NCBI GenBank assembly: GCA_032718475.1
Contig: JAUCBJ010001598.1
Location: 62,001-126,000, forward strand
DNA: 64,000 nucleotides
Reading direction: 5' to 3'
DNA from: Nemertoderma westbladi
Lineage: Eukaryota; Animalia; Xenacoelomorpha
The number at the start of each line of letters is the position of its first letter. Within the stretch, counting starts at the first letter, position 1. Both the position numbers and the translations under genes were made by a program. Of the stretch, positions 1-48,008 are shown piece by piece. The notes below the pieces were generated by a model, which was not told the origin of the DNA, searched no databases, and was given only the letters and a program-made list of their open reading frames with translations.

Positions 1-3000
1 TTCCCAGGCACCCTGTTGAGTCTGTACTATTCTACGCTATCATTTGTTTCCCAGGCACCCCGTTGAGTCTGTCTGTACTATTCTACGCTATCATTTGTTT
101 CCCAGGCACCCCGTTGAGTCTGTACTATTCTACGCTATCATTTGTTTCCCAGGCACCCCGTTGAGTCTACAATTCTACGCTATCATTTGTTTCCCAGGCA
201 CCCCGTTGAGTCTGTACTATTCTACATTATCATTTGTTTCCCAGGCACCCCGTTGAGTCTACTATTCTACATTATCATTTGTTTCCCAGGCACCCCGTTG
301 AGTCTGTACTATTCTACGCTATCATTTGTTTCCCAGGCACCCCGTTGAGTCTGTACTATTCTACGCTATCCTTTGTTTCCCAGACACCCCGTTGAGTCTG
401 TACTATTCTACGCTATCATTTGTTTCCCATGCACCCCGTTGAGTCTACAATTATACGCTATCATTTGTTTCCCAGGCACCCTGTTGAGTCTGTCTGTACT
501 ATTCTACGCTATCATTTGTTTCCCAGACACCCCGTTGAGTCTGTACTATTCTACGCTATCCTTTGTTTCCCAGACACCCCGTTGAGTCTGTACTATTCTA
601 CGCTATCATTTGTTTCCCATGCACCCCGTTGAGTCTACTATTCTACGCTATCATTTGTTTCCCAGGCACTCCGTTGAGTCTGTACTATTCTACGCTGTCA
701 TTTGTTTCCCAGGCACGCCGTTGAGTCTGTACTATTCTACGCTATCATTTGTTTCCCAGGCACCCCGTTGAGTCTGTACTATTCTACGCTATCATTTGTT
801 TCCCAGGCACCCTGTTGAGTCTGTCTGTACTATTCTACGCTACCATTTGTTTCCCAGGCACCCCGTTGAGTCTACAATTCTACGCTATCATTTGTTTCCC
901 AGGCACCCCGTTGAGTCTGTACTATTCTACATTATCATTTGTTTCCCAGGCACCCCGTTGAGTCTACTATTCTACATTATCATTTGTTTCCCAGGCACTC
1001 CGTTGAGTCTGTCTGTACTATTCTACGCTATCATTTGTTTCCCAGGCACCCTGTTGAGTCTGTCTGTACTATTCTACGCTACCATTTGTTTCCCAGGCAC
1101 CCCGTTGAGTCTACAATTCTACGCTATCATTTGTTTCCCAGGCACCCCGTTGAGTCTGTACTATTCTACATTATCATTTGTTTCCCAGGCACCCCGTTGA
1201 GTCTACTATTCTACGCTAGCATTTGTTTCCCAGACACCCCGTTGAGTCTGTACTATTCTACGCTATCCTTTGTTTCCCAGACACCCCGTTGAGTCTGTAC
1301 TATTCTACGCTATCATTTGTTTCCCATGCACCCCGTTGAGTCTACTATTCTACGCTATCATTTGTTTCCCAGGCACTCCGTTGAGTCTGTACTATTCTAC
1401 GCTGTCATTTGTTTCCCAGGCACGCCGTTGAGTCTGTACTATTCTACGCTATCATTTGTTTCCCAGGCACCCTGTTGAGTCTGTCTGTACTATTCTACGC
1501 TACCATTTGTTTCCCAGGTACCCCGTTGAGTCTGTACTATTCTACGCTATCATTTGTTTCCCAGGCACTCCGTTGCGTCTACTATTCTACGCTATCATTT
1601 GTTTCCCAGGCACCCTGTTGAGTCTGTACTATTCTACGCTATCATTTGTTTCCCAGACACCCCGTTGAGTCTGTACTATTCTACGCTATCATTTGTTTCC
1701 CAGGCACTCCGTTGAGTCTACTATTCTACGCTATCATTTGTTTCCCAGGCACCCCGTTGAGTCTACTATTCTACGCTATAATTTGTTTCCCAGGCACCCC
1801 GTTGAGTCTACTATTCTACGCTATCATTTGTTTCCCAGGCACCCCGTTGAGTCTGTACTATTCTACGCTAGCATTTGTTTCCCAGGCACCCCGTTGAGTC
1901 TACTATTCTACGCTATCATTTGTTTCCCAGGCACTCCGTTGAGTCTGTACTATTCTACGCTATCATTTGTTTCCCAGGCACCCCGTTGAGTCTGTACTAT
2001 TCTACGCTATCATTTGTTTCCCAGGCACCCCGTTGAGTCTACTATTCTACGCTATCATTTGTTTCCCAGGCACCCCGTTGAGTCTGTACTATTCTACGCT
2101 AGCATTTGTTTCCCAGGCACCCCGTTGAGTCTACTATTCTACGCTATCATTTGTTTCCCAGGCACTCCGTTGAGTCTGTACTATTCTACGCTGTCATTTG
2201 TTTCCCAGGCACGCCGTTGAGTCTGTACTATTCTACGCTATCATTTGTTTCCCAGGCACCCTGTTGAGTCTGTCTGTACTATTCTACGCTACCATTTGTT
2301 TCCCAGGTACCCCGTTGAGTCTGTACTATTCTACGCTATCATTTGTTTCCCAGGCACTCCGTTGCGTCTACTATTCTACGCTATCATTTGTTTCCCAGGC
2401 ACCCTGTTGAGTCTGTACTATTCTACGCTATCATTTGTTTCCCAGACACCCCGTTGAGTCTGTACTATTCTACGCTATCATTTGTTTCCCAGGCACCCCG
2501 TTGAGTCTACTATTCTACGCTATCATTTGTTTCCCAGGCACCCTGTTGAGTCTACTATTCTACGCTATCATTTGTTTCCCAGGCACCCCGTTGAGTCTGT
2601 ACTATTCTACGCTATCATTTGTTTCCCAGACACCCCGTTGAGTCTGTACTATTCTACGCTATCATTTGTTTCCCAGGTACCCCGTTGAGTCTGTACTATT
2701 CTACGCTATCATTTGTTTCCCAGGCACCCCGTTGAGTCTGTACTATTCTACGCTATCATTTGTTTCCCAGGTACCCCGTTGAGTCTGTACTATTCTACGC
2801 TATCATTTGTTTCCCAGGTACCCCGTTGAGTCTGTACTATTCTACGCTATCATTTGTTTCCCAGACACCCCGTTGAGTCTGTACTATTCTACGCTATCAT
2901 TTGTTTCCCAGGTACCCCGTTGAGTCTGTACTATTCTACGCTATCATTTGTTTCCCAGGCACCCTGTTGAGTCTACTATTCTACGCTATCATTTGTTTCC

Positions 3001-6000
3001 CAGGCACCCCGTTGAGTCTGTACTATTCTACATTATCATTTGTTTCCCAGGCACCCCGTTGAGTCTGTACTATTCTACGCTATCATTTGTTTCCCAGACA
3101 CCCCGTTGAGTCTGTACTATTCTACGCTATCATTTGTTTCCCAGACACCCCGTTGAGTCTGTACTATTATACGCTATCATTTGTTTCCCAGGCACCCTGT
3201 TGAGTCTACTATTCTACGCTATCATTTGTTTCCCAGGCACCCCGTTGAGTCTGTACTATTCTACGCTATCATTTGTTTCCCAGACACCCCGTTGAGTCTG
3301 TACTATTATACGCTATCATTTGTTTCCCAGGCACCCTGTTGAGTCTACTATTCTACGCTATCATTTGTTTCTCAGGCACCCCGTTGAGTCTGTACTATTC
3401 TACGCTATCATTTGTTTCCCAGGCACCCCGTTGAGTCTGTACTATTATACGCTATCATTTGTTTCCCAGGCACCCCGTTGAGTCTACTATTCTACGCTAT
3501 CATTTGTTTCCCATGCACCCCGTTGAGTCTACTATTCTACGCTATCATTTGTTTCCCAGACACCCCGTTGAGTCTGTACTATTATACGCTATCATTTGTT
3601 TCCCAGGCACCCTGTTGAGTCTACTATTCTACGCTATCATTTGTTTCCCAGGCACCCCGTTGAGTCTGTACTATTCTACATTATCATTTGTTTCCCAGGC
3701 ACCCCGTTGAGTCTGTACTATTCTACGCTATCATTTGTTTCCCAGGCACCCTGTTGAGTCTGTACTATTCTACGTTATCATTTTTTTCCCAGGCACCCTG
3801 TTGAGTCTGTCTGTACTATTCTACGCTATCATTTCTTTCCCAGGCACCCTGTTGAGTCTGTACTATTCTACGCTATTATTTGTTTCCCAGGCACCCCGTT
3901 GCGTCTGTCTGTACTATTCTACGCTACCATTTGTTTCCCAGGCACCCCGTTGAGTCTACAATTCTACGCTATCATTTGTTTCCCATGCACCCCGTTGAGT
4001 CTGCCTGTACTATTCTACGCTATCATTTGTTTCCCAGGCACCCTGTTGAGTCTGTACTATTCTACGCTATCATTTGTTTCCCAGGCACCCCGTTGAGTCT
4101 GTCTGTACTATTCTACGCTACCATTTGTTTCCCAGGCACCCCGTTGAGTCTGTACTATTCTACGCTACCATTTGTTTCCCAGGCACCCCGTTGAGTCTGT
4201 ACTATTCTACGCTATCATTTGTTTCCCAGGCACCCCGTTGAGTCTGTACTATTCTACGCTATCATTTGTTTCCCAGGCACCCCGTTGAGTCTGTCTGTAC
4301 TATTCTACGCTATCATTTGTTTCCCAGGCACCCTGTTGAGTCTGTCTGTACTATTCTACGCTATCATTTGTTTCCCAGGCACCCTGTTGAGTCTGTCTGT
4401 ACTATTCTACGCTATCATTTGTTTCCCAGGCACCCCGTTGAGTCTGTACTATTCTACGCTATCATTTGTTTCCCAGGCACCCCGTTGAGTCTGTCTGTAC
4501 TATTCTACGCTATCATTTGTTTCCCAGGCACCCCGTTGAGTCTGTCTGTACTATTCTACGCTATCATTTGTTTCCCAGGCACCCTGTTGAGTCTGTCTGT
4601 ACTATTCTACGCTATCATTTGTTTCCCAGGCACCCCGTTGAGTCTGTACTATTCTACGCTATCATTTGTTTCCCAGGCACCCCGTTGAGTCTGTACTATT
4701 CTACGCTATCATTTGTTTCCCAGGCACCCCGTTGAGTCTACAATTCTACGCTATCATTTGTTTCCCAGACACCCCGTTGAGTCTACAATTCTACGCTATC
4801 ATTTGTTTCCCAGGCACCCCGTTGAGTCTGTCTGTACTATTCTACGCTATCATTTGTTTCCCAGGCACCCTGTTGAGTCTGTCTGTACTATTCTACGCTA
4901 TCATTTGTTTCCCAGGCACCCCGTTGAGTCTGTACTATTCTACGCTATCATTTGTTTCCCAGGCACCCCGTTGAGTCTGTACTATTCTACGCTATCATTT
5001 GTTTCCCAGGCACCCCGTTGAGTCTGTACTATTCTACGCTATCATTTGTTTCCCAGGCACCCCGTTGAGTCTGTACTATTCTACGCTATCATTTGTTTCC
5101 CAGGCACCCCGTTGAGTCTGTCTGTACTATTCTACGCTATCATTTGTTTCCCAGGCACCCTGTTGAGTCTGTCTGTACTATTCTACGCTATCATTTGTTT
5201 CCCAGGCACCCCGTTGAGTCTGTACTATTCTACGCTATTATTTGTTTCCCAGGCACCCCGTTGAGTCTGTACTATTCTACGCTATCATTTGTTTCCCAGG
5301 CACCCCGTTGAGTCTACAATTCTACGCTATCATTTGTTTCCCAGACACCCCGTTGAGTCTACAATTCTACGCTATCATTTGTTTCCCAGGCACCCCGTTG
5401 AGTCTGTCTGTACTATTCTACGCTATCATTTGTTTCCCAGGCACCCCGTTGAGTCTGTACTATTCTACGCTATCACTTGTTTCCCAGGCACCCCGTTGAG
5501 TCTGTACTATTCTACGCTATCATTTGTTTCCCAGGCACCCCGTTGAGTCTGTACTATTCTACGCTATCATTTGTTTCCCAGGCACCCCGTTGAGTCTGTA
5601 CTATTCTACGCTATCATTTGTTTCCCAGGCACCCCGTTGAGTCTGTACTATTCTACGTTAGCATTTGTTTCCCAGGCACCCCGTTGAGTCTGTACTATTC
5701 TACGCTATCATTTGTTTCCCAGGCACCCCGTTGAGTCTGTACTATTCTACGCTATCATTTGTTTCCCAGGCACCCCGTTGAGTCTGTACTATTCTACGTT
5801 AGCATTTGTTTCCCAGGCACCCCGTTGAGTCTGTACTATTCTACGCTATCATTTGTTTCCCAGGCACCCCGTTGAGTCTGTACTATTCTACGCTATCATT
5901 TGTTTCCCAGGCACCCCGTTGAGTCTGTACTATTCTACGTTAGCATTTGTTTCCCAGGCACCCCGTTGAGTCTGTACTATTCTACGCTATCATTTGTTTC

Positions 6001-9000
6001 CCAGGCACCCCGTTGAGTCTGTACTATTCTACGCTATCATTTGTTTCCCAGGTACCCCGTTGAGTCTGTACTATTCTACGCTATCATTTGTTTCCCAGAC
6101 ACCCCGTTGAGTCTGTACTATTCTACGCTATCATTTGTTTCCCAGGCACCCCGTTGAGTCTGTACTATTCTACGCTATCATTTGTTTCCCAGGCACCCCG
6201 TTGAGTCTACAATTCTACGCTATCATTTGTTTCCCAGGCACCCCGTTGAGTCTGCCTGTACTATTCTACGCTATCATTTGTTTCCCAGGCACCCTGTTGA
6301 GTCTGTACTATTCTACGCTATCATTTGTTTCCCAGGCACCCCGTTGAGTCTGTCTGTACTATTCTACGCTATCATTTGTTTCCCAGGCACCCCGTTGAGT
6401 CTGTACTATTCTACGCTATCATTTGTTTCCCAGGCACCCCGTTGAGTCTACAATTCTACGCTATCATTTGTTTCCCAGGCACCCCGTTGAGTCTGTACTA
6501 TTCTACATTATCATTTGTTTCCCAGGCACCCCGTTGAGTCTACTATTCTACATTATCATTTGTTTCCCAGGCACCCCGTTGAGTCTGTACTATTCTACGC
6601 TATCATTTGTTTCCCAGGCACCCCGTTGAGTCTGTACTATTCTACGCTATCCTTTGTTTCCCAGACACCCCGTTGAGTCTGTACTATTCTACGCTATCAT
6701 TTGTTTCCCATGCACCCCGTTGAGTCTACAATTATACGCTATCATTTGTTTCCCAGGCACCCTGTTGAGTCTGTCTGTACTATTCTACGCTATCATTTGT
6801 TTCCCAGACACCCCGTTGAGTCTGTACTATTCTACGCTATCCTTTGTTTCCCAGACACCCCGTTGAGTCTGTACTATTCTACGCTATCATTTGTTTCCCA
6901 TGCACCCCGTTGAGTCTACTATTCTACGCTATCATTTGTTTCCCAGGCACTCCGTTGAGTCTGTACTATTCTACGCTGTCATTTGTTTCCCAGGCACGCC
7001 GTTGAGTCTGTACTATTCTACGCTATCATTTGTTTCCCAGGCACCCCGTTGAGTCTGTACTATTCTACGCTATCATTTGTTTCCCAGGCACCCTGTTGAG
7101 TCTGTCTGTACTATTCTACGCTACCATTTGTTTCCCAGGCACCCCGTTGAGTCTACAATTCTACGCTATCATTTGTTTCCCAGGCACCCCGTTGAGTCTG
7201 TACTATTCTACATTATCATTTGTTTCCCAGGCACCCCGTTGAGTCTACTATTCTACATTATCATTTGTTTCCCAGGCACTCCGTTGAGTCTGTCTGTACT
7301 ATTCTACGCTATCATTTGTTTCCCAGGCACCCTGTTGAGTCTGTCTGTACTATTCTACGCTACCATTTGTTTCCCAGGCACCCCGTTGAGTCTACAATTC
7401 TACGCTATCATTTGTTTCCCAGGCACCCCGTTGAGTCTGTACTATTCTACATTATCATTTGTTTCCCAGGCACCCCGTTGAGTCTACTATTCTACGCTAG
7501 CATTTGTTTCCCAGACACCCCGTTGAGTCTGTACTATTCTACGCTATCCTTTGTTTCCCAGACACCCCGTTGAGTCTGTACTATTCTACGCTATCATTTG
7601 TTTCCCATGCACCCCGTTGAGTCTACTATTCTACGCTATCATTTGTTTCCCAGGCACTCCGTTGAGTCTGTACTATTCTACGCTGTCATTTGTTTCCCAG
7701 GCACGCCGTTGAGTCTGTACTATTCTACGCTATCATTTGTTTCCCAGGCACCCTGTTGAGTCTGTCTGTACTATTCTACGCTACCATTTGTTTCCCAGGT
7801 ACCCCGTTGAGTCTGTACTATTCTACGCTATCATTTGTTTCCCAGGCACTCCGTTGCGTCTACTATTCTACGCTATCATTTGTTTCCCAGGCACCCTGTT
7901 GAGTCTGTACTATTCTACGCTATCATTTGTTTCCCAGACACCCCGTTGAGTCTGTACTATTCTACGCTATCATTTGTTTCCCATGCACCCCGTTGAGTCT
8001 ACTATTCTACGCTATCATTTGTTTCCCATGCACCCCGTTGAGTCTACTATTCTACGCTATCATTTGTTTCCCAGACACCCCGTTGAGTCTGTACTATTAT
8101 ACGCTATCATTTGTTTCCCAGGCACCCCGTTGAGTCTGTCTGTACTATTCTACGCTATCATTTGTTTCCCAGGCACCCTGTTGAGTCTGTCTGTACTATT
8201 CTACGTTATCATTTTTTTCCCAGGCACCCTGTTGAGTCTGTCTGTACTATTCTACGCTACCATTTGTTTCCCAGGCACCCCGTTGAGTCTGTACTATTCT
8301 ACGCTATCATTTGTTTCCCAGGCACCCCGTTGAGTCTACAATTCTACGCTATCATTTGTTTCCCAGGCACCCCGTTGAGTCTGTACTATTCTACATTATC
8401 ATTTGTTTCCCAGGCACCCCGTTGAGTCTGTACTATTCTACGCTATCATTTGTTTCCCAGGCACCCTGTTGAGTCTGTACTATTCTACGTTATCATTTTT
8501 TTCCCAGGCACCCTGTTGAGTCTGTCTGTACTATTCTACGCTACCATTTGTTTCCCAGGCACCCCGTTGAGTCTGTACTATTCTACGCTATCATTTGTTT
8601 CCCAGGCACCCCGTTGAGTCTACAATTCTACGCTATCATTTGTTTCCCAGGCACCCCGTTGAGTCTGTACTATTCTACATTATCATTTGTTTCCCAGGCA
8701 CCCCGTTGAGTCTGTACTATTCTACGCTACCATTTGTTTCCCAGGCACCCCGTTGAGTCTGTACTATTCTACGCTATCATTTGTTTCCCAGGCACCCCGT
8801 TGAGTCTACAATTCTACGCTATCATTTGTTTCCCAGGCACCCTGTTGAGTCTGTACTATTCTACGTTATCATTTTTTTCCCAGGCACCCTGTTGAGTCTG
8901 TCTGTACTATTCTACGCTACCATTTGTTTCCCAGGCACCCCGTTGAGTCTGTACTATTCTACGCTATCATTTGTTTCCCAGGCACCCCGTTGAGTCTGTA

Positions 9001-12000
9001 CTATTCTACGCTATCATTTGTTTCCCAGGCACCCCGTTGAGTCTGTACTATTCTACGCTATCATTTGTTTCCCAGGCACCCCGTTGAGTCTGTACTATTC
9101 TACGCTATCATTTGTTTCCCAGGTACCCCGTTGAGTCTGTACTATTCTACGTTAGCATTTGTTTCCCAGACACCCCGTTGAGTCTGTACTATTCTACGCT
9201 ATCATTTGTTTCCCAGGCACCTCGTTAAGTCTGTACTATTATACGCTATCATTTGTTTCCCAGGCACCCTGTTGAGTCTGTCGGTACTATTCTACGCTAT
9301 CATTTGTTTCCCAGGCACCCCGTTGAGTCTGTACTATTCTACGCTATCATTTGTTTCCCAGGCACCCCGTTGAGTCTGTACTATTCTACGCTATCATTTG
9401 TTTCCCAGGCACCCCGTTGAGTCTGTACTATTCTACGCTATCATTTGTTTCCCAGGCACCCCGTTGAGTCTGTACTATTCTACGCTATCATTTGTTTCCC
9501 ATGCACCCCGTTGAGTCTACTATTCTACGCTATCCTTTGTTTCCCAGGCACCCCGTTGAGTCTACTATTCTACGCTATCATTTGTTTCCCATGCACCCCG
9601 TTGAGTCTACTATTCTACGCTATCATTTGTTTCCCAGACACCCCGTTGAGTCTGTACTATTCTACGCTATCATTTGTTTCCCAGGCACCCCGTTGAGTCT
9701 GTCTGTACTATTCTACGCTATCATTTGTTTCCCAGGCACCTCGTTGAGTCTGTCTGTACTATTCTACGCTATATCATTTGTTTCCCAGGCACCCTGTTGA
9801 GTCTACTATTCTACGCTAGCATTTGTTTCCCAGGCACCCCGTTGAGTCTGTACTATTCTACGTTATCATTTTTTTCCCAGGCACCCTGTTGAGTCTGTCT
9901 GTACTATTCTACGCTACCATTTGTTTCCCAGGCACCCCGTTGAGTCTGTACTATTCTACGCTATCATTTGTTTCCCAGGCACCCCGTTGAGTCTGTACTA
10001 TTCTACGTTAGCATTTGTTTCCCAGACACCCCGTTGATTCTGTACTATTCTACGCTATCATTTGTTTCCCAGGCACCCTGTTGAGTCTACTATTCTACGC
10101 TATCATTTGTTTCCCATGCACCCCGTTGAGTCTACTATTCTACGCTATCATTTGTTTCCCAGGCACTCCGTTGAGTCTGTACTATTCTACGCTATCATTT
10201 GTTTCCCATGCACCCCGTTGAGTCTACTATTCTACGCTATCCTTTGTTTCCCAGACACCCCGTTGAGTCTGTACTATTCTACGCTATCATTTGTTTCCCA
10301 TGCACCCCGTTGAGTCTACTATTCTACGCTATCATTTGTTTCCCAGACACCCCGTTAAGTCTGTACTATTATACGCTATCATTTGTTTCCCAGGCACCCT
10401 GTGGAGTCTGTCGGTACTATTCTACGCTATCATTTGTTTCCCAGGCACCCCGTTGAGTCTACTATTCTACATTATCATTTGTTTCCCAGGCACCCCGTTG
10501 AGTCTGTACTATTCTACGCTATCCTTTGTTTCCCAGACACCCCGTTGAGTCTGTACTATTCTACGCTATCATTTGTTTCCCATGCACCCCGTTGAGTCTA
10601 CTATTCTACGCTATCATTTGTTTCCCAGGCACTCCGTTGAGTCTGTACTATTCTACGCTATCATTTGTTTCCCATGCACCCCGTTGAGTCTACTATTCTA
10701 CGCTATCCTTTGTTTCCCAGACACCCCGTTGAGTCTGTACTATTCTACGCTATCATTTGTTTCCCATGCACCCCGTTGAGTCTACTATTCTACGCTATCA
10801 TTTGTTTCCCAGGCACTCCGTTGAGTCTGTACTATTCTACGCTATCATTTGTTTCCCATGCACCCCGTTGAGTCTACTATTCTACGCTATCCTTTGTTTC
10901 CCAGACACCCCGTTGAGTCTGTACTATTCTACGCTATCATTTGTTTCCCATGCACCCCGTTGAGTCTACTATTCTACGCTATCATTTGTTTCCCAGGCAC
11001 TCCGTTGAGTCTGTACTATTCTACGCTATCATTTGTTTCCCAGGCACCCCGTTGAGTCTGTACTATTCTACGTTAGCATTTGTTTCCCAGGCACCCCGTT
11101 GAGTCTGTACTATTCTACGCTATCATTTGTTTCCCAGACACCCCGTTGAGTCTGTACTATTCTACGCTGTCATTTGTTTCCCAAGCACCCCGTTGAGTCT
11201 ACAATTCTACGCTATCATTTGTTTCCCAGACACCCCGTTGAGTCTACAATTCTACGCTATCATTTGTTTCCCAGGCACCCCGTTGAGTCTGTCTGTACTA
11301 TTCTACGCTATCATTTGTTTCCCAGGCACCCCGTTGAGTCTGTACTATTCTACGCTATCACTTGTTTCCCAGGCACCCCGTTGAGTCTGTACTATTCTAC
11401 GCTATCATTTGTTTCCCAGGCACCCCGTTGAGTCTGTACTATTCTACGCTATCATTTGTTTCCCAGGCACCCCGTTGAGTCTGTACTATTCTACGCTATC
11501 ATTTGTTTCCCAGGCACCCCGTTGAGTCTGTACTATTCTACGTTAGCATTTGTTTCCCAGGCACCCCGTTGAGTCTGTACTATTCTACGCTATCATTTGT
11601 TTCCCAGGCACCCCGTTGAGTCTGTACTATTCTACGCTATCATTTGTTTCCCAGGCACCCCGTTGAGTCTGTACTATTCTACGTTAGCATTTGTTTCCCA
11701 GGCACCCCGTTGAGTCTGTACTATTCTACGCTATCATTTGTTTCCCAGGCACCCCGTTGAGTCTGTACTATTCTACGCTATCATTTGTTTCCCAGGCACC
11801 CCGTTGAGTCTGTACTATTCTACGTTAGCATTTGTTTCCCAGGCACCCCGTTGAGTCTGTACTATTCTACGCTATCATTTGTTTCCCAGGCACCCCGTTG
11901 AGTCTGTACTATTCTACGCTATCATTTGTTTCCCAGGTACCCCGTTGAGTCTGTACTATTCTACGCTATCATTTGTTTCCCAGACACCCCGTTGAGTCTG

Positions 12001-27000: not shown

Positions 27001-30000
27001 CTACGCTATCATTTGTTTCCCATGCACCCCGTTGAGTCTACTATTCTACGCTATCATTTGTTTCCCAGGCACCCCGTTGAGTCTGTACTATTCTACGCTA
27101 TCATTTGTTTCCCATGCACCCCGTTGAGTCTACAATTCTACGCTATCATTTGTTTCCCATGCACCCCGTTGAGTCTACTATTCTACGCTATCATTTGTTT
27201 CCCATGCACCCCGTTGAGTCTACTATTCTACGCTATCATTTGTTTCCCATGCACCCCGTTGAGTCTACAATTCTACGCTATCATTTGTTTCCCATGCACC
27301 CCGTTGAGTCTACTATTCTACGCTATCATTTGTTTCCCAGGCACCCCGTTGAGTCTGTACTATTCTACGCTATCATTTGTTTCCCAGGCACCCCGTTGAG
27401 TCTACTATTCTACGCTATCATTTGTTTCCCAGGCACCCCGTTGAGTCTGTACTATTCTACGCTATCATTTGTTTCCCAGGCACCCCGTTGCGTCTACTAT
27501 TCTACGCTATCATTTGTTTCCCAGGCACCCCGTTGAGTCTGTACTATTCTACGCTATCATTTGTTTCCCAGGCACCCCGTTGCGTCTACTATTCTACGCT
27601 ATCATTTGTTTCCCAGGCACCCCGTTGAGTCTGTACTATTCTACGCTATCATTTGTTTCCCAGGCACCCCGTTGAGTCTACTATTCTACGCTATCATTTG
27701 TTTCCCAGGCACCCCGTTGAGTCTGTACTATTCTACGCTATCATTTGTTTCCCAGGCACCCCGTTGCGTCTACTATTCTACGCTATCATTTGTTTCCCAG
27801 GTACCCCGTTGAGTCTACTATTCTACGCTAGCATTTGTTTCCCAGGCACCCCGTTGAGTCTACTATTCTACTCTACCATTTGTTTCCCAGGCACCCCGTT
27901 GAGTCTACTATTCTACGCTATCATTTGTTTCCCATGCACCCCGTTGAGTCTACTATTCTACGCTAGCATTTGTTTCCCAGGCACCCCGTTGAGTCTACTA
28001 TTCTACTCTACCATTTGTTTCCCAGGCACCCCGTTGAGTCTGTACTATTCTACGCTAGCATTTGTTTCCCAGGCACCCCGTTGAGTCTACTATTCTACTC
28101 TACCATTTGTTTCTCAGGCACCCCGTTGAGTCTGTACTATTCTACGTTAGCATTTGTTTCCCAGACACCCCGTTGAGTCTGTACTATTCTACGCTAGCAT
28201 TTGTTTCCCAGGCACCCCGTTGAGTCTACTATTCTACTCTACCATTTGTTTCTCAGGCACCCCGTTGAGTCTGTACTATTCTACGTTAGCATTTGTTTCC
28301 CAGGCACCCCGTTGCGTCTACTATTCTACGCTATCATTTGTTTCCCAGGCACCCCGTTGAGTCTGTACTATTCTACGCTATCATTTGTTTCCCAGGCACC
28401 CCGTTGCGTCTACTATTCTACGCTATCATTTGTTTCCCAGGCACCCCGTTGAGTCTGTACTATTATACGCTATCATTTGTTTCCCAGGCACTCCGTTGCG
28501 TCTACTATTCTACGCTATCATTTGTTTCTCAGGCACCCCGTTGAGTCTGTCTGTACTATTCTACGCTACCATTTGTTTCCCAGGTACCCCGTTGAGTCTG
28601 TACTATTCTACGCTATCATTTGTTTCCCAGGCACGCCGTTGAGTCTGTACTATTCTACGCTATCATTTGTTTCCCAGGTACCCCGTTGAGTCTACTATTC
28701 TACGCTATCATTTGTTTCCCAGGCACCCCGTTGAGTCTGTACTATTCTACGCTATCATTTGTTTCCCATGTACCCCGTTGAGTCTACTATTCTACATTAT
28801 CATTTGTTTCCCAGACACCCCGTTGAGTCTGTACTATTCTACGCTATCATTTGTTTCCCAGGCACCTCGTTAAGTCTGTACTATTATACGCTATCATTTG
28901 TTTCCCAGGCACCCTGTTGAGTCTGTCGGTACTATTCTACGCTATCATTTGTTTCCCAGGCACCCCGTTGAGTCTGTACTATTCTACGCTATCATTTGTT
29001 TCCCAGGCACCCTGTGGAGTCTGTCGGTACTATTCTACGCTAGCATTTGTTTCCCAGGCACCCCGTTGAGTCTGTACTATTCTACGCTAGCATTTGTTTC
29101 CCAGGCACCCCGTTGAGTCTACTATTCTACGCTATCATTTGTTTCCCATGCACCCCGTTGAGTCTACTATTCTACGCTAGCATTTGTTTCCCAGGCACCC
29201 CGTTGAGTCTGTACTATTCTACGCTAGCATTTGTTTCCCAGGCACCCCGTTGAGTCTACTATTCTACGCTATCATTTGTTTCCCATGCACCCCGTTGAGT
29301 CTACTATTCTACGCTAGCATTTGTTTCCCAGGCACCCCGTTGAGTCTGTACTATTCTACGCTAGCATTTGTTTCCCAGGCACCCCGTTGAGTCTGTACTA
29401 TTTTACGCTAGCATTTGTTTCCCAGGCACCCCGTTGAGTCTGTACTATTCTACGCTATCATTTGTTTCCCAGGCACCCTGTGGAGTCTGTCGGTACTATT
29501 CTACGCTAGCATTTGTTTCCCAGGCACCCCGTTGAGTCTGTACTATTCTACGCTAGCATTTGTTTCCCAGGCACCCCGTTGAGTCTACTATTCTACGCTA
29601 TCATTTGTTTCCCATGCACCCCGTTGAGTCTACTATTCTACGCTAGCATTTGTTTCCCAGGCACCCCGTTGAGTCTGTACTATTCTACGCTATCATTTGT
29701 TTCCCAGGTACCCCGTTGAGTCTGTACTATTCTACGCTAGCATTTGTTTCCCAGGCACCCCGTTGAGTCTGTACTATTCTACGCTAGCATTTGTTTCCCA
29801 GGCACCTCGTTGAGTCTGTACTATTATACGCTAGCATTTGTTTCTCAGGCACCCTGTTGAGTCTACTATTCTACGCTATAATTTGTTTCCCAGGCACCCC
29901 GTTGAGTCTACTATTCTACGCTATCATTTGTTTCCCAGGCACGCCGTTGAGTCTGTACTATTCTACGCTATCATTTGTTTCCCATGCACTCCGTTGAGTC

Positions 30001-33000
30001 TACTATTCTACGCTATCATTTGTTTCCCAGGCACCCCGTTGAGTCTGTACTATTCTACGCTAGCATTTGTTTCCCAGACACCCCGTTGAGTCTGTACTAT
30101 TCTACGCTAGCATTTGTTTCCCAGGCACCTCGTTGAGTCTGTACTATTATACGCTATCATTTGTTTCCCAGGCACTCCGTTGCGTCTACTATTCTACGCT
30201 ATCATTTGTTTCCCAGGCACCCCGTTGAGTCTGTACTATTCTACGCTAGCATTTGTTTCCCAGGCACCTCGTTGAGTCTGTACTATTATACGCTATCATT
30301 TGTTTCCCAGGCACTCCGTTGCGTCTACTATTCTACGCTATCATTTGTTTCCCAGGCACCCCGTTGAGTCTGTACTATTCTACGCTATCATTTGTTTCTC
30401 AGGCACCCCGTTGAGTCTACTATTCTACGCTATCATTTGTTTCCCAGGCACCCCGTTGAGTCTGTACTATTCTACGCTAGCATTTGTTTCCCAGGCACCT
30501 CGTTGAGTCTGTACTATTATACGCTATCATTTGTTTCCCAGGCACTCCGTTGCGTCTACTATTCTACGCTATCATTTGTTTCCCAGGCACCCCGTTGAGT
30601 CTGTACTATTCTACGCTATCATTTGTTTCTCAGGCACCCCGTTGAGTCTACTATTCTACGCTATCATTTGTTTCCCAGGCACCCCGTTGAGTCTGTACTA
30701 TTCTACGCTAGCATTTGTTTCCCAGGCACCTCGTTGAGTCTGTACTATTATACGCTATCATTTGTTTCCCAGGCACTCCGTTGCGTCTACTATTCTACGC
30801 TATCATTTGTTTCTCAGGCACCCCGTTGAGTCTACTATTCTACGCTATCATTTGTTTCCCAGGCACCCCGTTGAGTCTGTACTATTCTACGCTATCATTT
30901 GTTTCTCAGGCACCCCGTTGAGTCTGTACTATTCTACGCTATCATTTGTTTCCCAGGCACTCCGTTGCGTCTACTATTCTACGCTAGCATTTGTTTCCCA
31001 GGCACCTCGTTGAGTCTGTACTATTATACGCTACCATTTGTTTCCCAGGTACCCCGTTGAGTCTGTACTATTCTACGCTATCATTTGTTTCCCAGGCACT
31101 CCGTTGCGTCTACTATTCTACGCTAGCATTTGTTTCCCAGGCACCTCGTTGAGTCTGTACTATTATACGCTACCATTTGTTTCCCAGGTACCCCGTTGAG
31201 TCTGTACTATTCTACGCTATCATTTGTTTCTCAGGCACCCCGTTGAGTCTGTACTATTCTACGCTATCATTTGTTTCCCAGGCACTCCGTTGCGTCTACT
31301 ATTCTACGCTAGCATTTGTTTCCCAGGCACCTCGTTGAGTCTGTACTATTATACGCTATCATTTGTTTCCCAGGCACCCCGTTGAGTCTGTACTATTCTA
31401 CGCTAGCATTTGTTTCCCAGGCACCTCGTTGAGTCTGTACTATTATACGCTATCATTTGTTTCCCAGGCACTCCGTTGCGTCTACTATTCTACGCTATCA
31501 TTTGTTTCCCAGGCACCCCGTTGAGTCTGTACTATTCTACGCTATCATTTGTTTCTCAGGCACCCCGTTGAGTCTACTATTCTACGCTATCATTTGTTTC
31601 CCAGGCACCCCGTTGAGTCTGTACTATTCTACGCTATCATTTGTTTCTCAGGCACCCCGTTGAGTCTGTACTATTCTACGCTATCATTTGTTTCCCAGGC
31701 ACCCCGTTGAGTCTACTATTATACGCTATCATTTGTTTCCCAGGCACTCCGTTGCGTCTACTATTCTACGCTATCATTTGTTTCCCAGGCACCCCGTTGA
31801 GTCTGTACTATTCTACGCTAGCATTTGTTTCCCAGGTACCCCGTTGAGTCTGTACTATTCTACGCTAGCATTTGTTTCCCAGGCACCCCGTTGAGTCTGT
31901 ACTATTCTACGCTAGCATTTGTTTCCCAGGTACCCCGTTGAGTCTGTACTATTCTACGCTATCATTTGTTTCCCAGGCACCCCGTTGAGTCTGTACTATT
32001 CTACGCTATCATTTGTTTCCCAGGCACTCCGTTGAGTCTGTACTATTCTACGCTATCATTTGTTTCCCAGGCACTCCGTTGAGTCTGTACTATTCTACGC
32101 TACCATTTGTTTCCCAGGTACCCCGTTGAGTCTGTACTATTCTACGCTATCATTTGTTTCCCAGGCACCTCGTTGAGTCTGTACTATTCTACGCTATCAT
32201 TTGTTTCCCAGGCACTCCGTTGAGTCTGTACTATTCTACGCTACCATTTGTTTCCCAGGTACCCCGTTGAGTCTGTACTATTCTACGCTACCATTTGTTT
32301 CCCAGGTACCCCGTTGAGTCTGTACTATTCTACGCTATCATTTGTTTCCCAGGCACCTCGTTGAGTCTGTACTATTCTACGCTATCATTTGTTTCCCAGG
32401 CACTCCGTTGAGTCTGTACTATTCTACGCTACCATTTGTTTCCCAGGTACCCCGTTGAGTCTGTACTATTCTACGCTATCATTTGTTTCCCAGGCACTCC
32501 GTTGAGTCTGTACTATTCTACGCTACCATTTGTTTCCCAGGTACCCCGTTGAGTCTGTACTATTCTACGCTATCATTTGTTTCCCAGGCACCTCGTTGAG
32601 TCTGTACTATTCTACGCTATCATTTGTTTCCCAGGCACTCCGTTGAGTCTGTACTATTCTACGCTACCATTTGTTTCCCAGGTACCCCGTTGAGTCTGTA
32701 CTATTCTACGCTATCATTTGTTTCCCAGACACCCCGTTGAGTCTGTACTATTCTACGCTATCATTTGTTTCCCATGCACCCCGTTGAGTCTACTATTATA
32801 CGCTATCATTTGTTTCCCAGGCACTCCGTTGCGTCTACTATTCTACGCTATCATTTGTTTCCCAGGCACCCCGTTGAGTCTGTACTATTCTACGCTATCA
32901 TTTGTTTCCCAGGCACCCCGTTGAGTCTGTACTATTCTACGCTATCATTTGTTTCCCAGGCACCCTGTTGAGTCTGTACTATTCTACGCTAGCATTTGTT

Positions 33001-36000
33001 TCCCAGGCACTCCGTTGAGTCTGTACTATTCTACGCTATCATTTGTTTCCCAGGCACCCCGTTGAGTCTGTACTATTCTACGCTAGCATTTGTTTCCCAT
33101 GCACCCCGTTGAGTCTACTATTATACGCTATCATTTGTTTCCCAGGCACTCCGTTGCGTCTACTATTCTACGCTATCATTTGTTTCCCAGGCACCCCGTT
33201 GAGTCTGTACTATTCTACGCTACCATTTGTTTCCCAGGTACCCCGTTGAGTCTGTACTATTCTACGCTACCATTTGTTTCCCAGGCACCCCGTTGAGTCT
33301 GTACTATTCTACGCTATCATTTGTTTCCCAGGTACCCCGTTGAGTCTGTACTATTCTACGCTAGCATTTGTTTCCCATGCACCCCGTTGCGTCTACTATT
33401 CTACGCTATCATTTGTTTCCCAGGCACCCCGTTGAGTCTGTACTATTCTACGCTATCATTTGTTTCCCAGGCACTCCGTTGCGTCTACTATTCTACGCTA
33501 TCATTTGTTTCCCAGGTACCCCGTTGAGTCTGTACTATTCTACGCTACCATTTGTTTCCCAGGTACCCCGTTGAGTCTGTACTATTCTACGCTACCATTT
33601 GTTTCCCAGGCACCCCGTTGAGTCTGTACTATTCTACGCTATCATTTGTTTCCCAGGTACCCCGTTGAGTCTGTACTATTCTACGCTAGCATTTGTTTCC
33701 CATGCACCCCGTTGAGTCTGTACTATTCTACGCTATCATTTGTTTCCCATGCACCCCGTTGAGTCTGTACTATTCTACGCTATCATTTGTTTCCCAGGCA
33801 CGCCGTTGAGTCTGTACTATTCTACGCTACCATTTGTTTCCCAGGTACCCCGTTGAGTCTGTACTATTCTACGCTATCATTTGTTTCCCAGGTACCCCGT
33901 TGAGTCTGTACTATTCTACGCTAGCATTTGTTTCCCATGCACCCCGTTGAGTCTACTATTATACGCTATCATTTGTTTCCCAGGCACTCCGTTGCGTCTA
34001 CTATTCTACGCTATCATTTGTTTCCCAGGCACCCCGTTGAGTCTGTACTATTCTACGCTAGCATTTGTTTCCCAGGCACCCCGTTGAGTCTGTACTATTC
34101 TACGCTATCATTTGTTTCCCAGGCACTCCGTTGAGTCTACTATTCTACGCTATCATTTGTTTCCCAGGCACCCCGTTGAGTCTGTACTATTCTACGCTAG
34201 CATTTGTTTCCCAGGCACCCCGTTGAGTCTGTACTATTCTACGCTATCATTTGTTTCCCAGGCACTCCGTTGAGTCTGTACTATTCTACGCTATCATTTG
34301 TTTCCCAGGCACCCCGTTGAGTCTGTACTATTCTACGCTATCATTTGTTTCCCAGGCACTCCGTTGAGTCTGTACTATTCTACATTATCATTTGTTTCCC
34401 AGACACCCCGTTGAGTCTGTACTATTCTACGCTAGCATTTGTTTCCCAGGCACCCCGTTGAGTCTGTACTATTCTACGCTATCATTTGTTTCCCATGCAC
34501 TCCGTTGAGTCTACTATTCTACGCTATCATTTGTTTCCCAGGCACCCCGTTGAGTCTACTATTCTACGCTATCATTTGTTTCCCAGACACCCCGTTGAGT
34601 CTGTACTATTCTACGCTAGCATTTGTTTCTCAGGCACCCCGTTGAGTCTGTACTATTCTACGCTATCATTTGTTTCCCAGGCACTCCGTTGCGTCTACTA
34701 TTCTACATTATCATTTGTTTCCCAGGTACCCCGTTGAGTCTGTACTATTCTACGCTAGCATTTGTTTCCCAGACACCCCGTTGAGTCTGTACTATTCTAC
34801 GCTATCATTTGTTTCCCAGGCACCCCGTTGAGTCTGTACTATTCTACGCTATCATTTGTTTCCCAGGCACCCCGTTGAGTCTGTACTATTCTACGCTATC
34901 ATTTGTTTCCCAGGCACCCCGTTGAGTCTGTACTATTCTACGCTAGCATTTGTTTCCCAGGCACCCCGTTGAGTCTGTACTATTCTACGCTATCATTTGT
35001 TTCCCAGGCACCCCGTTGAGTCTGTACTATTCTACGCTAGCATTTGTTTCCCAGGCACCCCGTTGAGTCTGTACTATTCTACGCTATCATTTGTTTCCCA
35101 TGCACCCCGTTGAGTCTACTATTCTACGCTATCATTTGTTTCCCATGCACCCCGTTGAGTCTACAATTCTACGCTATCATTTGTTTCCCATGCACCCCGT
35201 TGAGTCTACTATTCTACGCTATCATTTGTTTCCCAGGCACCCCGTTGAGTCTGTACTATTCTACGCTATCATTTGTTTCCCAGGCACCCCGTTGAGTCTG
35301 TACTATTCTACGCTATCATTTGTTTCCCAGGCACCCCGTTGAGTCTACAATTCTACGCTATCATTTGTTTCCCATGCACCCCGTTGAGTCTACTATTCTA
35401 CGCTATCATTTGTTTCCCAGGCACCCCGTTGAGTCTGTACTATTCTACGCTATCATTTGTTTCCCAGGCACCCCGTTGAGTCTGTACTATTCTACGCTAT
35501 CATTTGTTTCCCAGGCACCCCGTTGAGTCTGTACTATTCTACGCTAGCATTTGTTTCCCAGGCACCCTGTTGAGTCTACTATTCTACGCTATCATTTGTT
35601 TCCCAGGCACCCCGTTGAGTCTGTACTATTCTACGCTATCATTTGTTTCCCAGGCACCCCGTTGAGTCTGTACTATTCTACGCTATCATTTGTTTCCCAG
35701 GCACCCCGTTGCGTCTGTACTATTCTACGCTATCATTTGTTTCCCAGGCACCCCGTTGCGTCTACTATTCTACGCTATCATTTGTTTCCCAGGCACCCCG
35801 TTGAGTCTGTACTATTCTACGCTATCATTTGTTTCCCAGGCACCCCGTTGCGTCTACTATTCTACGCTATCATTTGTTTCCCAGGCACCCCGTTGAGTCT
35901 GTACTATTCTACGCTATCATTTGTTTCCCAGGCACCCCGTTGAGTCTGTACTATTCTACGCTATATCATTTGTTTCCCAGGCACCCCGTTGAGTCTGTAC

Positions 36001-39000
36001 TATTCTACGCTATCATTTGTTTCCCAGGCACCCCGTTGAGTCTGTACTATTCTACGCTATCATTTGTTTCCCAGGCACTCCGTTGAGTCTGTACTATTCT
36101 ACGCTACCATTTGTTTCCCAGGCACCCCGTTGAGTCTGTACTATTCTACGCTATCATTTGTTTCCCAGGTACCCCGTTGAGTCTGTACTATTCTACGCTA
36201 GCATTTGTTTCCCAGGCACCCCGTTGAGTCTACTATTCTACGTTATCATTTGTTTCCCAGGCACTCCGTTGCGTCTACTATTCTACGCTATCATTTGTTT
36301 CCCAGGCACCCCGTTGAGTCTGTACTATTCTACGCTAGCATTTGTTTCCCAGACACCCCGTTGAGTCTGTACTATTCTACGCTATCATTTGTTTCCCAGG
36401 CACCTCGTTGAGTCTGTACTATTCTACGCTATCATTTGATTCCCAGGCACCCCGTTGAGTCTGTCTGTACTATTCTACGCTATCATTTGTTTCCCAGGCA
36501 CCCCGTTGAGTCTACTATTCTACGCTATCATTTGTTTCCCAGGCACCCCGTTGAGTCTGTACTATTCTACGCTATCATTTGTTTCCCATGCACCCCGTTG
36601 AGTCTACTATTCTACGCTATCATTTGTTTCCCATGCACCCCGTTGAGTCTACTATTCTACGCTATCATTTGTTTCCCAGGCACCCCGTTGAGTCTGTACT
36701 ATTCTACGCTATCATTTGTTTCCCATGTACCCCGTTGAGTCTACTATTCTACGCTATCATTTGTTTCCCAGGCACCCCGTTGAGTCTGTACTATTCTACG
36801 CTATCATTTGTTTCCCAGGCACCCCGTTGCGTCTACTATTCTACGCTATCATTTGTTTCCCAGGCACCTCGTTGAGTCTGTACTATTCTACGCTATCATT
36901 TGTTTCCCAGGCACCCCGTTGCGTCTACTATTCTATGCTATCATTTGTTTCCCAGGCACCCCGTTGAGTCTACTATTCTACGCTATCATTTGTTTCCCAG
37001 GCACGCCGTTGAGTCTGTACTATTCTACGCTATCATTTGTTTCCCAGGCACCCCGTTGCGTCTACTATTCTATGCTATCATTTGTTTCCCAGGTACCCCG
37101 TTGAGTCTGTACTATTCTACGCTAGCATTTGTTTCCCAGGCACCCCGTTGAGTCTGTACTATTCTACGCTAGCATTTGTTTCCCAGGCACCCCGTTGAGT
37201 CTGTACTATTCTACGCTAGCATTTGTTTCCCAGGCACCCCGTTGAGTCTGTACTATTCTACGCTATCATTTGTTTCCCAGGCACCCCGTTGAGTCTACTA
37301 TTCTACTCTACCATTTGTTTCCCAGGCACCCCGTTGAGTCTACTATTCTACTCTACCATTTGTTTCCCAGGCACCCCGTTGAGTCTGTACTATTCTACGC
37401 TATCATTTGTTTCTCAGGCACCCCGTTGAGTCTGTACTATTCTACGCTATCATTTGTTTCCCAGGCACCCCGTTGAGTCTGTACTATTCTACGCTATCAT
37501 TTGTTTCCCAGGCACGCCGTTGAGTCTGTACTATTCTACATTATCATTTGTTTCCCAGGCACTCCGTTGCGTCTGTACTATTCTACGCTATCATTTGTTT
37601 CTCAGGCACCCCGTTGAGTCTGTACTATTCTACGCTAGCATTTGTTTCCCAGGCACCCCGTTGAGTCTGTACTATTCTACGTTAGCATTTGTTTCCCAGA
37701 CACCCCGTTGCGTCTACTATTCTACGCTATCATTTGTTTCTCAGGCACCCCGTTGAGTCTGTACTATTCTACGCTATCATTTGTTTCCCAGGCACCCCGT
37801 TGAGTCTGTCTGTACTATTCTACGCTATCATTTGTTTCCCAGGCACGCCGTTGAGTCTGTACTATTCTACATTATCATTTGTTTCCCAGGCACCCCGTTG
37901 AGTCTGTACTATTCTACGCTAGCATTTGTTTCCCAGGCACCCCGTTGAGTCTGTACTATTCTACGCTAGCATTTGTTTCCCAGGCACCCCGTTGAGTCTG
38001 TACTATTCTACGCTATCATTTGTTTCCCAGGCACCCCGTTGAGTCTACTATTCTACTCTACCATTTGTTTCCCAGGCACCCCGTTGCGTCTACTATTCTA
38101 CGCTATCATTTGTTTCCCAGGCACCTCGTTGAGTCTGTACTATTCTACGCTATCATTTGTTTCCCAGACACGCCGTTGAGTCTGTACTATTCTACGCTAT
38201 CATTTGTTTCCCAGGCACCTCGTTGAGTCTGTACTATTCTACGCTATCATTTGTTTCCCAGACACGCCGTTGAGTCTGTACTATTCTACGCTATCATTTT
38301 TTTCCCAGGCACCCTGTTGAGTCTGTACTATTCTACGTTAGCATTTGTTTCCCAGACACCCCGTTGAGTCTGTACTATTCTACGCTATCATTTGTTTCCC
38401 AGGCACCTCGTTAAGTCTGTACTATTATACGCTATCATTTGTTTCCCAGGCACCCCGTTGAGTCTGTCTGTACTATTCTACGCTATCATTTGTTTCCCAG
38501 GCACGCCGTTGAGTCTGTACTATTCTACATTATCATTTGTTTCCCAGGCACTCCGTTGCGTCTACTATTCTACGCTATCATTTGTTTCCCAGGTACCCCG
38601 TTGAGTCTGTACTATTCTACGCTATCATTTGTTTCCCAGGCACCCCGTTGAGTCTGTACTATTCTACGCTATCATTTGTTTCCCAGGCACCCCGTTGAGT
38701 CTGTACTATTCTACGCTATCATTTGTTTCCCATGCACCCCGTTGAGTCTACAATTCTACGCTATCATTTGTTTCCCAGGCACCCCGTTGAGTCTACTATT
38801 CTACGCTATCATTTGTTTCCCAGGCACGCCGTTGAGTCTGTACTATTCTACCCTATCATTTGTTTCCCAGGCACTCCGTTGCGTCTACTATTCTACGCTA
38901 TCATTTGTTTCCCAGGTACCCCGTTGAGTCTGTACTATTCTACGCTATCATTTGTTTCCCAGGCACCCCGTTGAGTCTGTACTATTCTACGCTATCATTT

Positions 39001-39557
39001 GTTTCCCATGCACCCCGTTGAGTCTGTCTGTACTATTCTACGATATCATTTGTTTCCCAGGCACCCCGTTGAGTCTGTACTATTCTACGCTATCATTTGT
39101 TTCCCAGGCACGCCGTTGAGTCTGTACTATTCTACGCTATCATTTGTTTCCCAGTCACCCCGTTGAGTCTGTACTATTCTACGCTATCATTTGTTTCCCA
39201 GACACCCCGTTGAGTCTGTACTATTCTACGCTATCATTTGTTTCCCAGGCACCCCGTTGAGTCTACTATTCTACGCTATCATTTGTTTCCCAGGCACCCC
39301 GTTGAGTCTGTACTATTCTACGCTACCATTTGTTTCCCAGGCACTCCGTTGCGTCTACTATTCTACGCTATCATTTGTTTCCCAGGCACCCCGTTGAGTC
39401 TGTACTATTCTACGCTATCATTTGTTTCCCAGGCACCCCGTTGAGTCTGTACTATTCTACGCTATCATTTGTTTCCCAGGCACCCTGTTGAGTCTACTAT
39501 TCTACGCTAGCATTTGTTTCCCAGGCACCCCGTTGAGTCTGTACTATTCTACGCTAT
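1..39557 (+). repeat. Intronic satellite, 47-bp monomer (45- and 51-bp variants), about 840 copies in window, open at the left edge; monomer = 3' splice site + first 33 nt of the beta-catenin exon at 39525
   Basis: Monomer catttgtttcccag-gcaccccgttgagtctgtactattctacgctat repeats head-to-tail from position 1. The last copy (39511-39557) runs into unique coding sequence (...GCT ATT ATA ACT CTA CAC AAC). Copy number is estimated as 39.5 kb / ~47 bp. Confidence 0.98.
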
Positions 39558-39726
39558 TATAACTCTACACAACCTGCTTCTGCACCTCGATGGCTCCAAG
39601 ATGGCAGTCCGACAGGCTGGAGGCCTACAGAAGATGGTCGCTTTACTGAGTCGTAACAACGTTAAGTTTCTCGCTATAACCACGGATTGCCTCCAAATCC
39701 TGGCCTATGGGAATCAGGATAGCAAG
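39525..39726 (+). CDS. CTNNB1: Beta-catenin/armadillo coding exon ([67 protein letters not shown]), 202 nt
   Basis: Translation matches the beta-catenin arm-repeat segment [41 protein letters not shown]...[21 protein letters not shown]. Acceptor tttcccAG at 39523-39524; donor AAG|GTGGGT at 39727. Starts in phase 2, ends in phase 0. Confidence 0.97.
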
Positions 39727-40969
39727 GTGGGTGTCCCCAGTAAATCATTCGCACTCTGCGTTACCAATAAATAACGCATTTATATTATGTTAAAATATTA
39801 AACGAACGGATGAAGTGGTAGGAATATACATTCACTACCGGTAACACAGTGTGTGATTGATAACTATAAGGTTTAATGGGGATTACCTGGTATTCCTCAT
39901 TAAAACTTATAATTATATAGACCCTATCTTCTCTTCCTGTGCCACAATATAGTCTGATGTCTTTTACTATCTTTAAATAATATCATATAATGATTATAAT
40001 CATATAACGACCACCCTCAACACTTTATTTTATTTGTATCATTCATACGCTATATGACACAATGAAATTTGAACATTTATCATTTAAATGTTATCATATG
40101 CGATTGTCTTGAATAATGCCTTGTTAAGGCTGTAGTGGTACCAGGCCTTTTAAACGGAGACTAGATTCACGATAATTTCATTTTTTTTTAATTTATCTTT
40201 ATTAAGTGTTTTATAGTGCTTAATTTTCTGTTATAACCTGTTTTTAATACAGATACTAATTCGTTTATTGTTTTGGTTAGAATCTTCTATAACCAGGGTT
40301 TTTAGTGGAAAACAAAAGAAAGTCTGACATACTTAACATAGGGGCCCATATTCTGGCATTAAATACCCTCCCGCAATTTGGGAGGAGTGCTAATTATTAT
40401 TTTATTTTATAATTAACTATAACAGATCGGAGCTCCGAGGTTTTATATACCGAGCGAGGCGAGGCGAGGTTAATAAAGAATCGAGAACTTGGTGACTCAT
40501 TATTAACCATGCAATAAATAATTATTACCATACTGTTGTTGTAACTGCAATAAAAACATTACTATATTATAAAAAAATAAAGCTAATAATTGACCATTAA
40601 GTTAACATAATGTAACAAAATTTCTTACATCATTGTCTGAGTAGAGCACATTCATCGTTACAGATGTCGGTTTATTTATGTTAAACATCCCTACATGCGC
40701 TCGCTCGCTACAATAAAGTGCGCGTGTTGTAGAGCTGGAAAGTGATGATTTGTACACAATAATTTTAATAATATCCAATAATATACTTTATTTCTCTTTA
40801 TTGAATAAATCAAGTCGTTACACTATACTAATTATTACACATTATCTCTCTCACTTAACTTCTCAGACGCACAATCAATTATTTTCACCTGATTTCTCTA
40901 TTTCCATTTTGCACTGCACATTTCTTAACTACTAACTCTATTGATGATTGGTTTAATTTATTAACTTAT

Positions 40970-42493: not shown

Positions 42494-42591
42494 ACTAGCC
42501 TATTCTATGGACAGCCATGGCTAAACGTTAAACTGTATGTACCTTACAGCACTTACTATATGGTCCTTCCTCCCTACTTTGTTACTTTACA

Positions 42592-43650: not shown

Positions 43651-43676
43651 TGTATTATTTAACTTACATACTACAG

Positions 43677-43821
43677 CTGATTCTATTGGCTAGTGGCGGT
43701 CCGCAGGAACTTTTGCGTATAATGCAGAGCTACTCGTACGAGAAGCTACTCTGGACTACGTCCCGAGCACTCAAAGTTCTCAGTGTTTGTCCCAATAATA
43801 AACCGGCAATTGTCACAGCAG
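43677..43821 (+). CDS. CTNNB1: Beta-catenin coding exon ([49 protein letters not shown]), 145 nt
   Basis: Matches [49 protein letters not shown]. Acceptor ctacAG at 43675-43676; donor G|GTTAGT at 43822. Phase 0 to 1. Confidence 0.97.
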
Positions 43822-44534: not shown

Positions 44535-44660
44535 TTGGTCTGTCTGTCTCTGAATATGTATGTCTGTCTCTGAATATGTCTGTATGTCTTCATCTATGTA
44601 TTTATGTCTGTTTCTATGTATAGGATTTATGTCTGTATGTTTGTATGACTGTCTGTATAA
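44535..44660. repeat. Degenerate (TGTC/TGTA)n tetranucleotide low-complexity tract
   Basis: gtctgtctgtctc...tatgtatgtctgtctc...atgtctgtatgtttgtatgactgtctgtat. Confidence 0.7.
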
Positions 44661-47995: not shown

Positions 47996-48008
47996 GTCAC
48001 TTTATTAG

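Follow-up and report, generated by a model that had tools for sequence, protein, structure and literature searches.

Satellite-scale tandem repeats spanning exon borders of a beta-catenin-like gene in Nemertoderma westbladi

A beta-catenin-like gene interrupted by two giant acceptor arrays

We analyzed 64,000 nucleotides of the xenacoelomorph Nemertoderma westbladi (positions 62,001 to 126,000, forward strand, of contig JAUCBJ010001598.1 in assembly GCA_032718475.1), hereafter the window, in which a beta-catenin-like gene carries two giant tandem arrays built from its own 3' splice sites. Eight forward-strand exons are visible: exon 1 of the window at 39525 to 39726 (202 nt, with its donor at 39727), exon 2 at 43677 to 43821 (145 nt), exon 3 at 45382 to 45521 (140 nt), exon 4 at 45909 to 46106 (198 nt), exon 5 at 46454 to 46699 (246 nt), exon 6 at 48009 to 48173 (165 nt), exon 7 at 48467 to 48623 (157 nt) and exon 8 at 52916 to 53164 (249 nt). 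With AG/GT ends throughout (16 intact splice ends), they join into a single reading frame of 500 codons without a stop, as an earlier sequence-only annotation of this locus (the original prediction) had stated. Exon 1 matches solved beta-catenin structures (E = 4e-35) and the joined protein is 68% identical to Chaetopterus beta-catenin over 490 columns, so that an armadillo-repeat region homologous to beta-catenin is present. Both ends of the gene, where a canonical beta-catenin has an N-terminal degron and a C-terminal motif, lie beyond the window, and only this armadillo region is seen here.

The protein is divergent. Against a set of 47 of 120 relative proteins it is 63 to 74% identical, compared with 72 to 94% for the Chaetopterus protein against the same set; its end branch measures 0.94 (median 0.064), and a quick tree leaves it unplaced; a search with exon 4 aimed at the lineage gave no match. 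Fast evolution of the lineage may be the reason, or the gene may be a divergent paralogue. Relative to Chaetopterus beta-catenin, exon 4 carries a seven-codon insertion within the armadillo region, with smaller insertions in exons 5 to 7.

Structure and origin of the 47-bp array

Upstream of exon 1, Tandem Repeats Finder (TRF) resolved a single array at 1 to 39557 with a period of 47 bp, 842.9 copies and 92% matches. The array crosses the left edge of the window, which makes 39.5 kb a minimum length. The original prediction had it running from 1 to 39726 over more than 39 kb; the size was right, while the right end lies at 39557. The terminal unit (39511 to 39557) comprises the last 14 intron bases, ending in the AG of the real acceptor (39523-39524), and the first 33 exon bases, bearing out the proposal that the monomer is the gene's own junction. 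It is also the commonest of 121 unit types: 186 of 841 units, itself included, are identical to it, and 187 of 841 copies match the real site over positions -14 to +33. When the comparison is extended to -20 to +33, only 11 of 841 copies match the real site, and the description of the decoys as locally identical to the functional acceptor thus holds for the unit itself and fails beyond it.

Splitting the array by motif gave 841 acceptor motifs, 769 with AG, 68 with AT, three with AA and one with GC, in keeping with the claim that most copies retain an intact AG. The predicted number of about 840 decoys is likewise matched by the upstream copies (1 to 39510, forward strand), which comprise 840 motifs, 768 of them with AG, and which are intronic and continue to the left. 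Motifs are spaced at 47 (518 cases), 45 (222) or 51 bp (91), with nine other spacings, and units of 45 and 51 bp are thus recurrent length variants. The penultimate unit (39466 to 39510) is one of the 45-bp variants; used as an acceptor it would be in frame and reach a TAG after nine codons. An additional AG at 39509-39510, positions -16/-15 of the real acceptor, occurs in 89 of 840 copies.

Units carry a mean of 1.15 substitutions (2.4%), without a gradient along the array. Of the 121 types, 49 are singletons, and variants recur in nested blocks. Between 4755 and 16500 a block of about 125 units (5.9 kb) is nearly duplicated, with 101 successive units identical at a lag of 125, and a partial third copy of this block is found at the window start. 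The nested blocks and the lag-125 duplication indicate concerted turnover in an array whose left edge is out of view. C>T at one CpG of the unit is the most frequent substitution (95 of 841 units), with G>A at the other CpG in 36; these may be a trace of methylation, though amplified variants are not independent of one another. An ancient coding match beside a young array sets the direction as gene to satellite; judged from sequence, the gene is the source of the 47-bp satellite.

A second giant array and other repeats at exon borders

TRF placed a second giant acceptor array at 54039 to 64000 on the forward strand, reaching the right window edge after about 10 kb. Its 41-bp unit consists of 33 intron bases and the first eight bases of the next exon. 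Of its 243 motifs, 223 retain AG and 183 combine AG with a YTRAY branch motif; a diverged edge copy lies on its left, with AG at 54017-54018. On the donor side, an 83-bp unit made of the last 63 bases of exon 6 and the first 20 bases of the following intron is present three times (48111 to 48359, forward strand), giving donors after 48173, 48256 and 48339, the latter two of which would lead to stops.

Two older arrays on the same strand lie next to acceptors. The first, with a 42-bp unit (42595 to 43485, 21 copies, 83% matches), resembles the acceptor region of the exon at 43677, and the second, with a 27-bp unit (46893 to 47992, 41 copies, 74% matches), ends 16 nt before the acceptor at 48009 and resembles its intron end. 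Against 16 junction probes, the adjacent acceptor scored best in both cases (z = 4.1 and 4.0, respectively; 1 in 200 shuffles each). All five arrays longer than 200 bp in the window thus touch or span exon borders, against 12% and 32% of non-array gene positions lying within 50 and 200 nt of a border. A short 20-bp repeat and poly-G runs are found away from borders, in mid-intron.

The arrays in independent sequencing runs

Six sequencing runs are listed for the organism; contigs from four were compared with 39466 to 40665 and from three with 52880 to 54140. Run X1 is possibly the source of the window, X2 comes from another sample and study, X3 from the sample of X2, and X4 from a third sample (S3). 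In X1, the contig of the consensus 47-bp unit has a depth of 5282, compared with 4.7 for the flank. X2 is also rich in the unit and its variants, and X3 likewise contains the unit, so that high multiplicity is seen in three DNA runs. In X1 and X2, which represent two samples, flank contigs share their first base, 39528, which is what a fork between continuation of the array and continuation of the exon would produce. The left junction of the 41-bp array was also found in both. The array is therefore present in two DNA samples, as the prediction of a real satellite required. No 41-mer contig ran on into 20 or more unlike letters in X1 (0 of 31) or X2 (0 of 33). Array depth varies among runs, and X2 and X3, although from one sample, differ about 60-fold when scaled to an interspersed repeat, which makes depth unusable as copy number; the 1,600 to 3,300 units or so that it would imply for X1 are not relied on. 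X4 has no cover on either giant array, which was not counted as evidence because contigs drop rare forms.

A spliced contig bearing on both arrays

One X4 contig of 2031 letters and depth 698 covers 39524 to 39726 without a difference in the exon and 52912 to 53165 with two, and lacks the unique intron beside these stretches within the regions compared. The distance from 39726 to 53164 on the contig, 1300 letters, equals the summed lengths of exons 2 to 8, a sum that fits the first donor of the 83-bp triple, and the unmatched contig stretch just ahead of 52912 corresponds to the end of exon 7. We infer from its being spliced that the contig represents mRNA, though the run is labelled 'DNA?'. 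The two differences in exon 8 (53062 and 53100) are common to X4 and an X1 contig, and one is also found in X2; they are allelic variation.

Past 53165 the contig has another 511 letters, which lead into an exon not found in the window; the first eight bases of this exon are the exon side of the 41-bp unit, and its ten visible codons, read by eye, are open. This continuation of the contig rules out a next exon starting at 54019, and we infer that the real exon of the 41-bp array lies beyond 64000. The presence of the 41-bp exon side in the contig implies that the mRNA passes at least 223 AG copies nearer the upstream donor. At exon 1, use of the penultimate acceptor would have produced a contig match at 39480 to 39524, and the match starts at 39524. 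As far as this one contig shows, with an overhang of 16 letters, the acceptor at 39525 is likely used, as the original prediction had anticipated, and the extra AG at 39509-39510 is not. A 12-nt microexon drawn from a GT..GT site in the 47-bp unit (706 such sites) was considered and rejected beside the exon, where base -1 of the contig is G and not A. The major X4 product is spliced normally, though contigs hide rare isoforms.

Splice signals in the decoy acceptors

Each of the 768 upstream AG copies of the 47-bp unit would, if used as an acceptor, lead to a premature stop. Decoys show no depletion near exon 1, as AG is retained in all 10 of the nearest copies and in 48 of the nearest 50, similar to 677 of 740 copies farther away. 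AG is directly followed by GT in 50 of the 768 copies, reading GTACCC or GTACTC; none has the +5 G found in eight of eight real donors. GTRAGT is absent from both giant arrays, and the 41-bp array contains no GT..GT donor-like site. Ratchet points of recursive splicing are acceptors directly followed by a strong donor, an arrangement not seen in the 47-bp array.

A giant 'mirage' as the probable explanation

Tandem repeats spanning exon-intron boundaries have been named 'mirages' in amphioxus, with units of 10 to 160 bp, no disturbance of splicing and an unclear mechanism (PMC3087553). Copy numbers are 3 and 6 units in BflGb6 (PMC3087553), and further amphioxus mirages occur in PGBD5 (2 to 7 units) and troponin C (PMC3902484). 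Like the repeats described here, the amphioxus mirages (Adh3, BflGb6/BflGb9 globins, troponin C and PGBD5; PMC3087553, PMC3902484) span borders on the acceptor or donor side, keep splice signals in many units and occur several to a gene. Their mRNA is normal, as that of the present gene may be to judge from the X4 contig, and length instability between alleles or cells is a further hallmark of mirages. They are reported with 2 to 7 units; the present arrays reach satellite scale and show higher-order structure, with a minimum of 842 units in 39.5 kb and 243 in 10 kb. Two other hallmarks are found here: many but not all units keep their signals (AG in 769 of 841 and 223 of 243), and turnover is concerted with edge units excluded, as the nested blocks and the diverged edge copy of the 41-bp array illustrate. 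The original prediction of a highly unusual satellite is thus sustained for size but not for kind, as junction-spanning repeats already had a name (PMC3087553).

Human genes offer smaller parallels. Donor-spanning minisatellites occur in intervening sequence (IVS) 7 of F7 (37 bp, 5 to 9 units), CBS IVS13 (15 to 20 units), LMNB2 (10 to 15) and PDGF (16 to 18) (PMC1557585). Their pseudo-sites are identical and the exon-adjacent one is preferred, an arrangement shared by the 83-bp triple (PMC1557585). They differ from the giant arrays in lying on the donor side and in having 40 to 170 times fewer copies, and CBS also uses two pseudo-sites (PMC1557585). In CBS 844ins68, an acceptor and exon start are duplicated and the distal, exon-adjacent acceptor is selected; there are only two copies, however, and the choice is ascribed to G runs (PMC11017215, PMC1802585). 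The 47-bp unit lacks such runs. Our literature search, judged by its listings and with most subscription papers outside it, gave no account of junction repeats with hundreds of copies. The satellites in Drosophila Y introns are simple satellites, not the gene's own splice sites. Those gigantic introns resemble the present case in that satellite DNA is transcribed within a working gene (PMC11207136, PMC6508621), and differ in reaching up to a megabase and in being expressed in spermatocytes (PMC11207136). The kind of repeat found here is therefore known, and what is new is its scale, with two giant acceptor arrays in one gene.

We consider it probable that the 47-bp array is a giant mirage, a neutral runaway repeat tolerated through splice-site choice on the exon side, where neutrality is itself a proposal. 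A single short duplication spanning the junction would have left the mRNA intact, and slippage and unequal exchange could then have amplified the duplicate. Selection would allow only junction-spanning or intronic duplications to survive, and the last copy would have stayed unchanged because it is coding. The array would be wholly intronic and probably removed in a single step. The last copy would win because the spliceosome probably couples each acceptor to the closest donor downstream, across the exon; exon definition, which the original prediction had favored and which we retain as the likeliest rule, would act with proximity to choose the copy adjoining the exon body. Use of a decoy would introduce premature stops, and rare errors would be cleared by nonsense-mediated decay. 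Exon definition and nonsense-mediated decay are established pathways. The same process would also have acted on at least two further borders of the gene, at the 41-bp acceptor and the 83-bp donor, and no function of the arrays would be required.

Several observations weigh against this explanation. Splicing to the next copies would give exons of 247 or 294 nt compared with the real 202 nt, and all 10 nearest copies keep AG; given such similar sizes, exon definition alone does not obviously separate them. The 47-bp unit lacks YTRAY (three in the whole 39.5-kb array), whereas six of seven other acceptors have one within 50 nt. Without this motif, and with 14 intron bases only, the working acceptor must use a branch point within the exon-derived repeat, perhaps TACTA at -26, common to 738 of 768 AG copies, which does not sit easily with this explanation. 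The 16 letters that overhang the 39525 junction fall below our 31-letter bridging rule. Moreover, the contig comes from sample S3, in a run labelled 'DNA?', and not from either of the two samples in which the arrays were seen.

Alternative explanations

A different origin is possible, if considerably less probable than neutral amplification: a process tied to splicing or transcription at borders, such as pausing, R-loops or RNA-templated repair, could seed duplications preferentially and turn splice sites into satellite nurseries in this genome. This would alter only the origin of the arrays and not the splicing outcome. The border association of five of five arrays over 200 bp, against 12% and 32% of positions within 50 and 200 nt, speaks for it, with a chance of about 5e-4 for the four arrays besides the one that drew attention to the locus. 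Yet the evidence comes from one gene, in a window that was selected because it holds an array of this type; of the five links, two are weak (1 in 200 shuffles, best of 16 probes), the 20-bp repeat and the poly-G runs lie mid-intron, and composition also changes at borders. More doubtful is that the array tunes dosage, either because decoy-spliced transcripts are destroyed or because the added intron length (more than 50 kb) delays expression. Every upstream AG copy does lead to a stop, and the penultimate copy has a rarer TAG-ended variant (17 of 222 45-bp units) that closes an otherwise open in-frame insertion. Against this, repeats of this type would be expected to contain stops by chance, AG is retained near the exon (48 of 50) as it is far away (677 of 740), and the major contig is spliced normally.

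Stepwise removal of the intron by recursive splicing at AG|GT copies, which the original prediction had allowed for, appears very unlikely. The 50 AG|GT copies among 768 speak for it, but their GTACCC or GTACTC lacks the +5 G of all eight real donors, neither giant array has a GTRAGT, and the 41-bp array offers no GT..GT site at all. We give equally little weight to a silent or dispensable paralogue in which the array is unconstrained. The long branch and the 63 to 74% identity would fit a relaxed or divergent copy, but 500 stop-free codons, 16 intact splice ends and a spliced contig (depth 698) that differs at 0 and 2 positions in the two exons compared argue otherwise, and 'silent' is already unlikely. 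Least probable of all is an assembly artefact: the near-duplicate 125-unit block could reflect over-expansion, but in X1 the consensus unit is far deeper than the flank (5282 versus 4.7), the independent sample X2 shows both junctions as well as the array and its variants, and the recurrence patterns of variants are unlike read errors.

Implications for splice-site choice and satellite origin

At about 40 times or more the published copy numbers compared (2 to 20), the gene represents a natural stress test of 3' splice-site choice. If acceptors were scanned from the upstream donor on a first-come basis, the first copy should be used; the spliced contig passes more than 200 nearer acceptors. 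Because the 41-bp unit has a branch motif and the 47-bp unit has none, the giant arrays make exon definition, proximity and branch-point use testable. They also show how an ordinary exon border can give rise to satellite DNA, and they call for caution in gene prediction and read alignment. Should the arrays be neutral, they represent ordinary repeat turnover at unusual size. We further speculate, tentatively and against the balance of probability, that splicing- or transcription-coupled duplication of borders actively seeds satellites, some reaching tens to hundreds of kilobases, and that a strict exon-side proximity rule makes the spliceosome ignore hundreds of perfect acceptors, which in the 41-bp array include the branch motif, even where the real acceptor is without its native branch point. 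If so, satellites and giant introns in genomes of this type would as a general rule arise at exon borders.

Other features of the introns

The possibility that the array-bearing intron was newly made by duplication was rejected because the exon sizes of 202 and 145 nt match those of human CTNNB1 exons 6 and 7, so that the position of the intron looks old. The intron after exon 1 carries high-copy interspersed elements (40180 to 40305 and 40586 to 40665); their depth greatly exceeds that of the flank in each of the four runs, and a joint between opposite strands suggests that they have inverted ends. Five poly-G/poly-C runs of about 20 to 30 bases lie in introns, at 40989 to 41018 and near 50070, 50380, 51010 and 52310.

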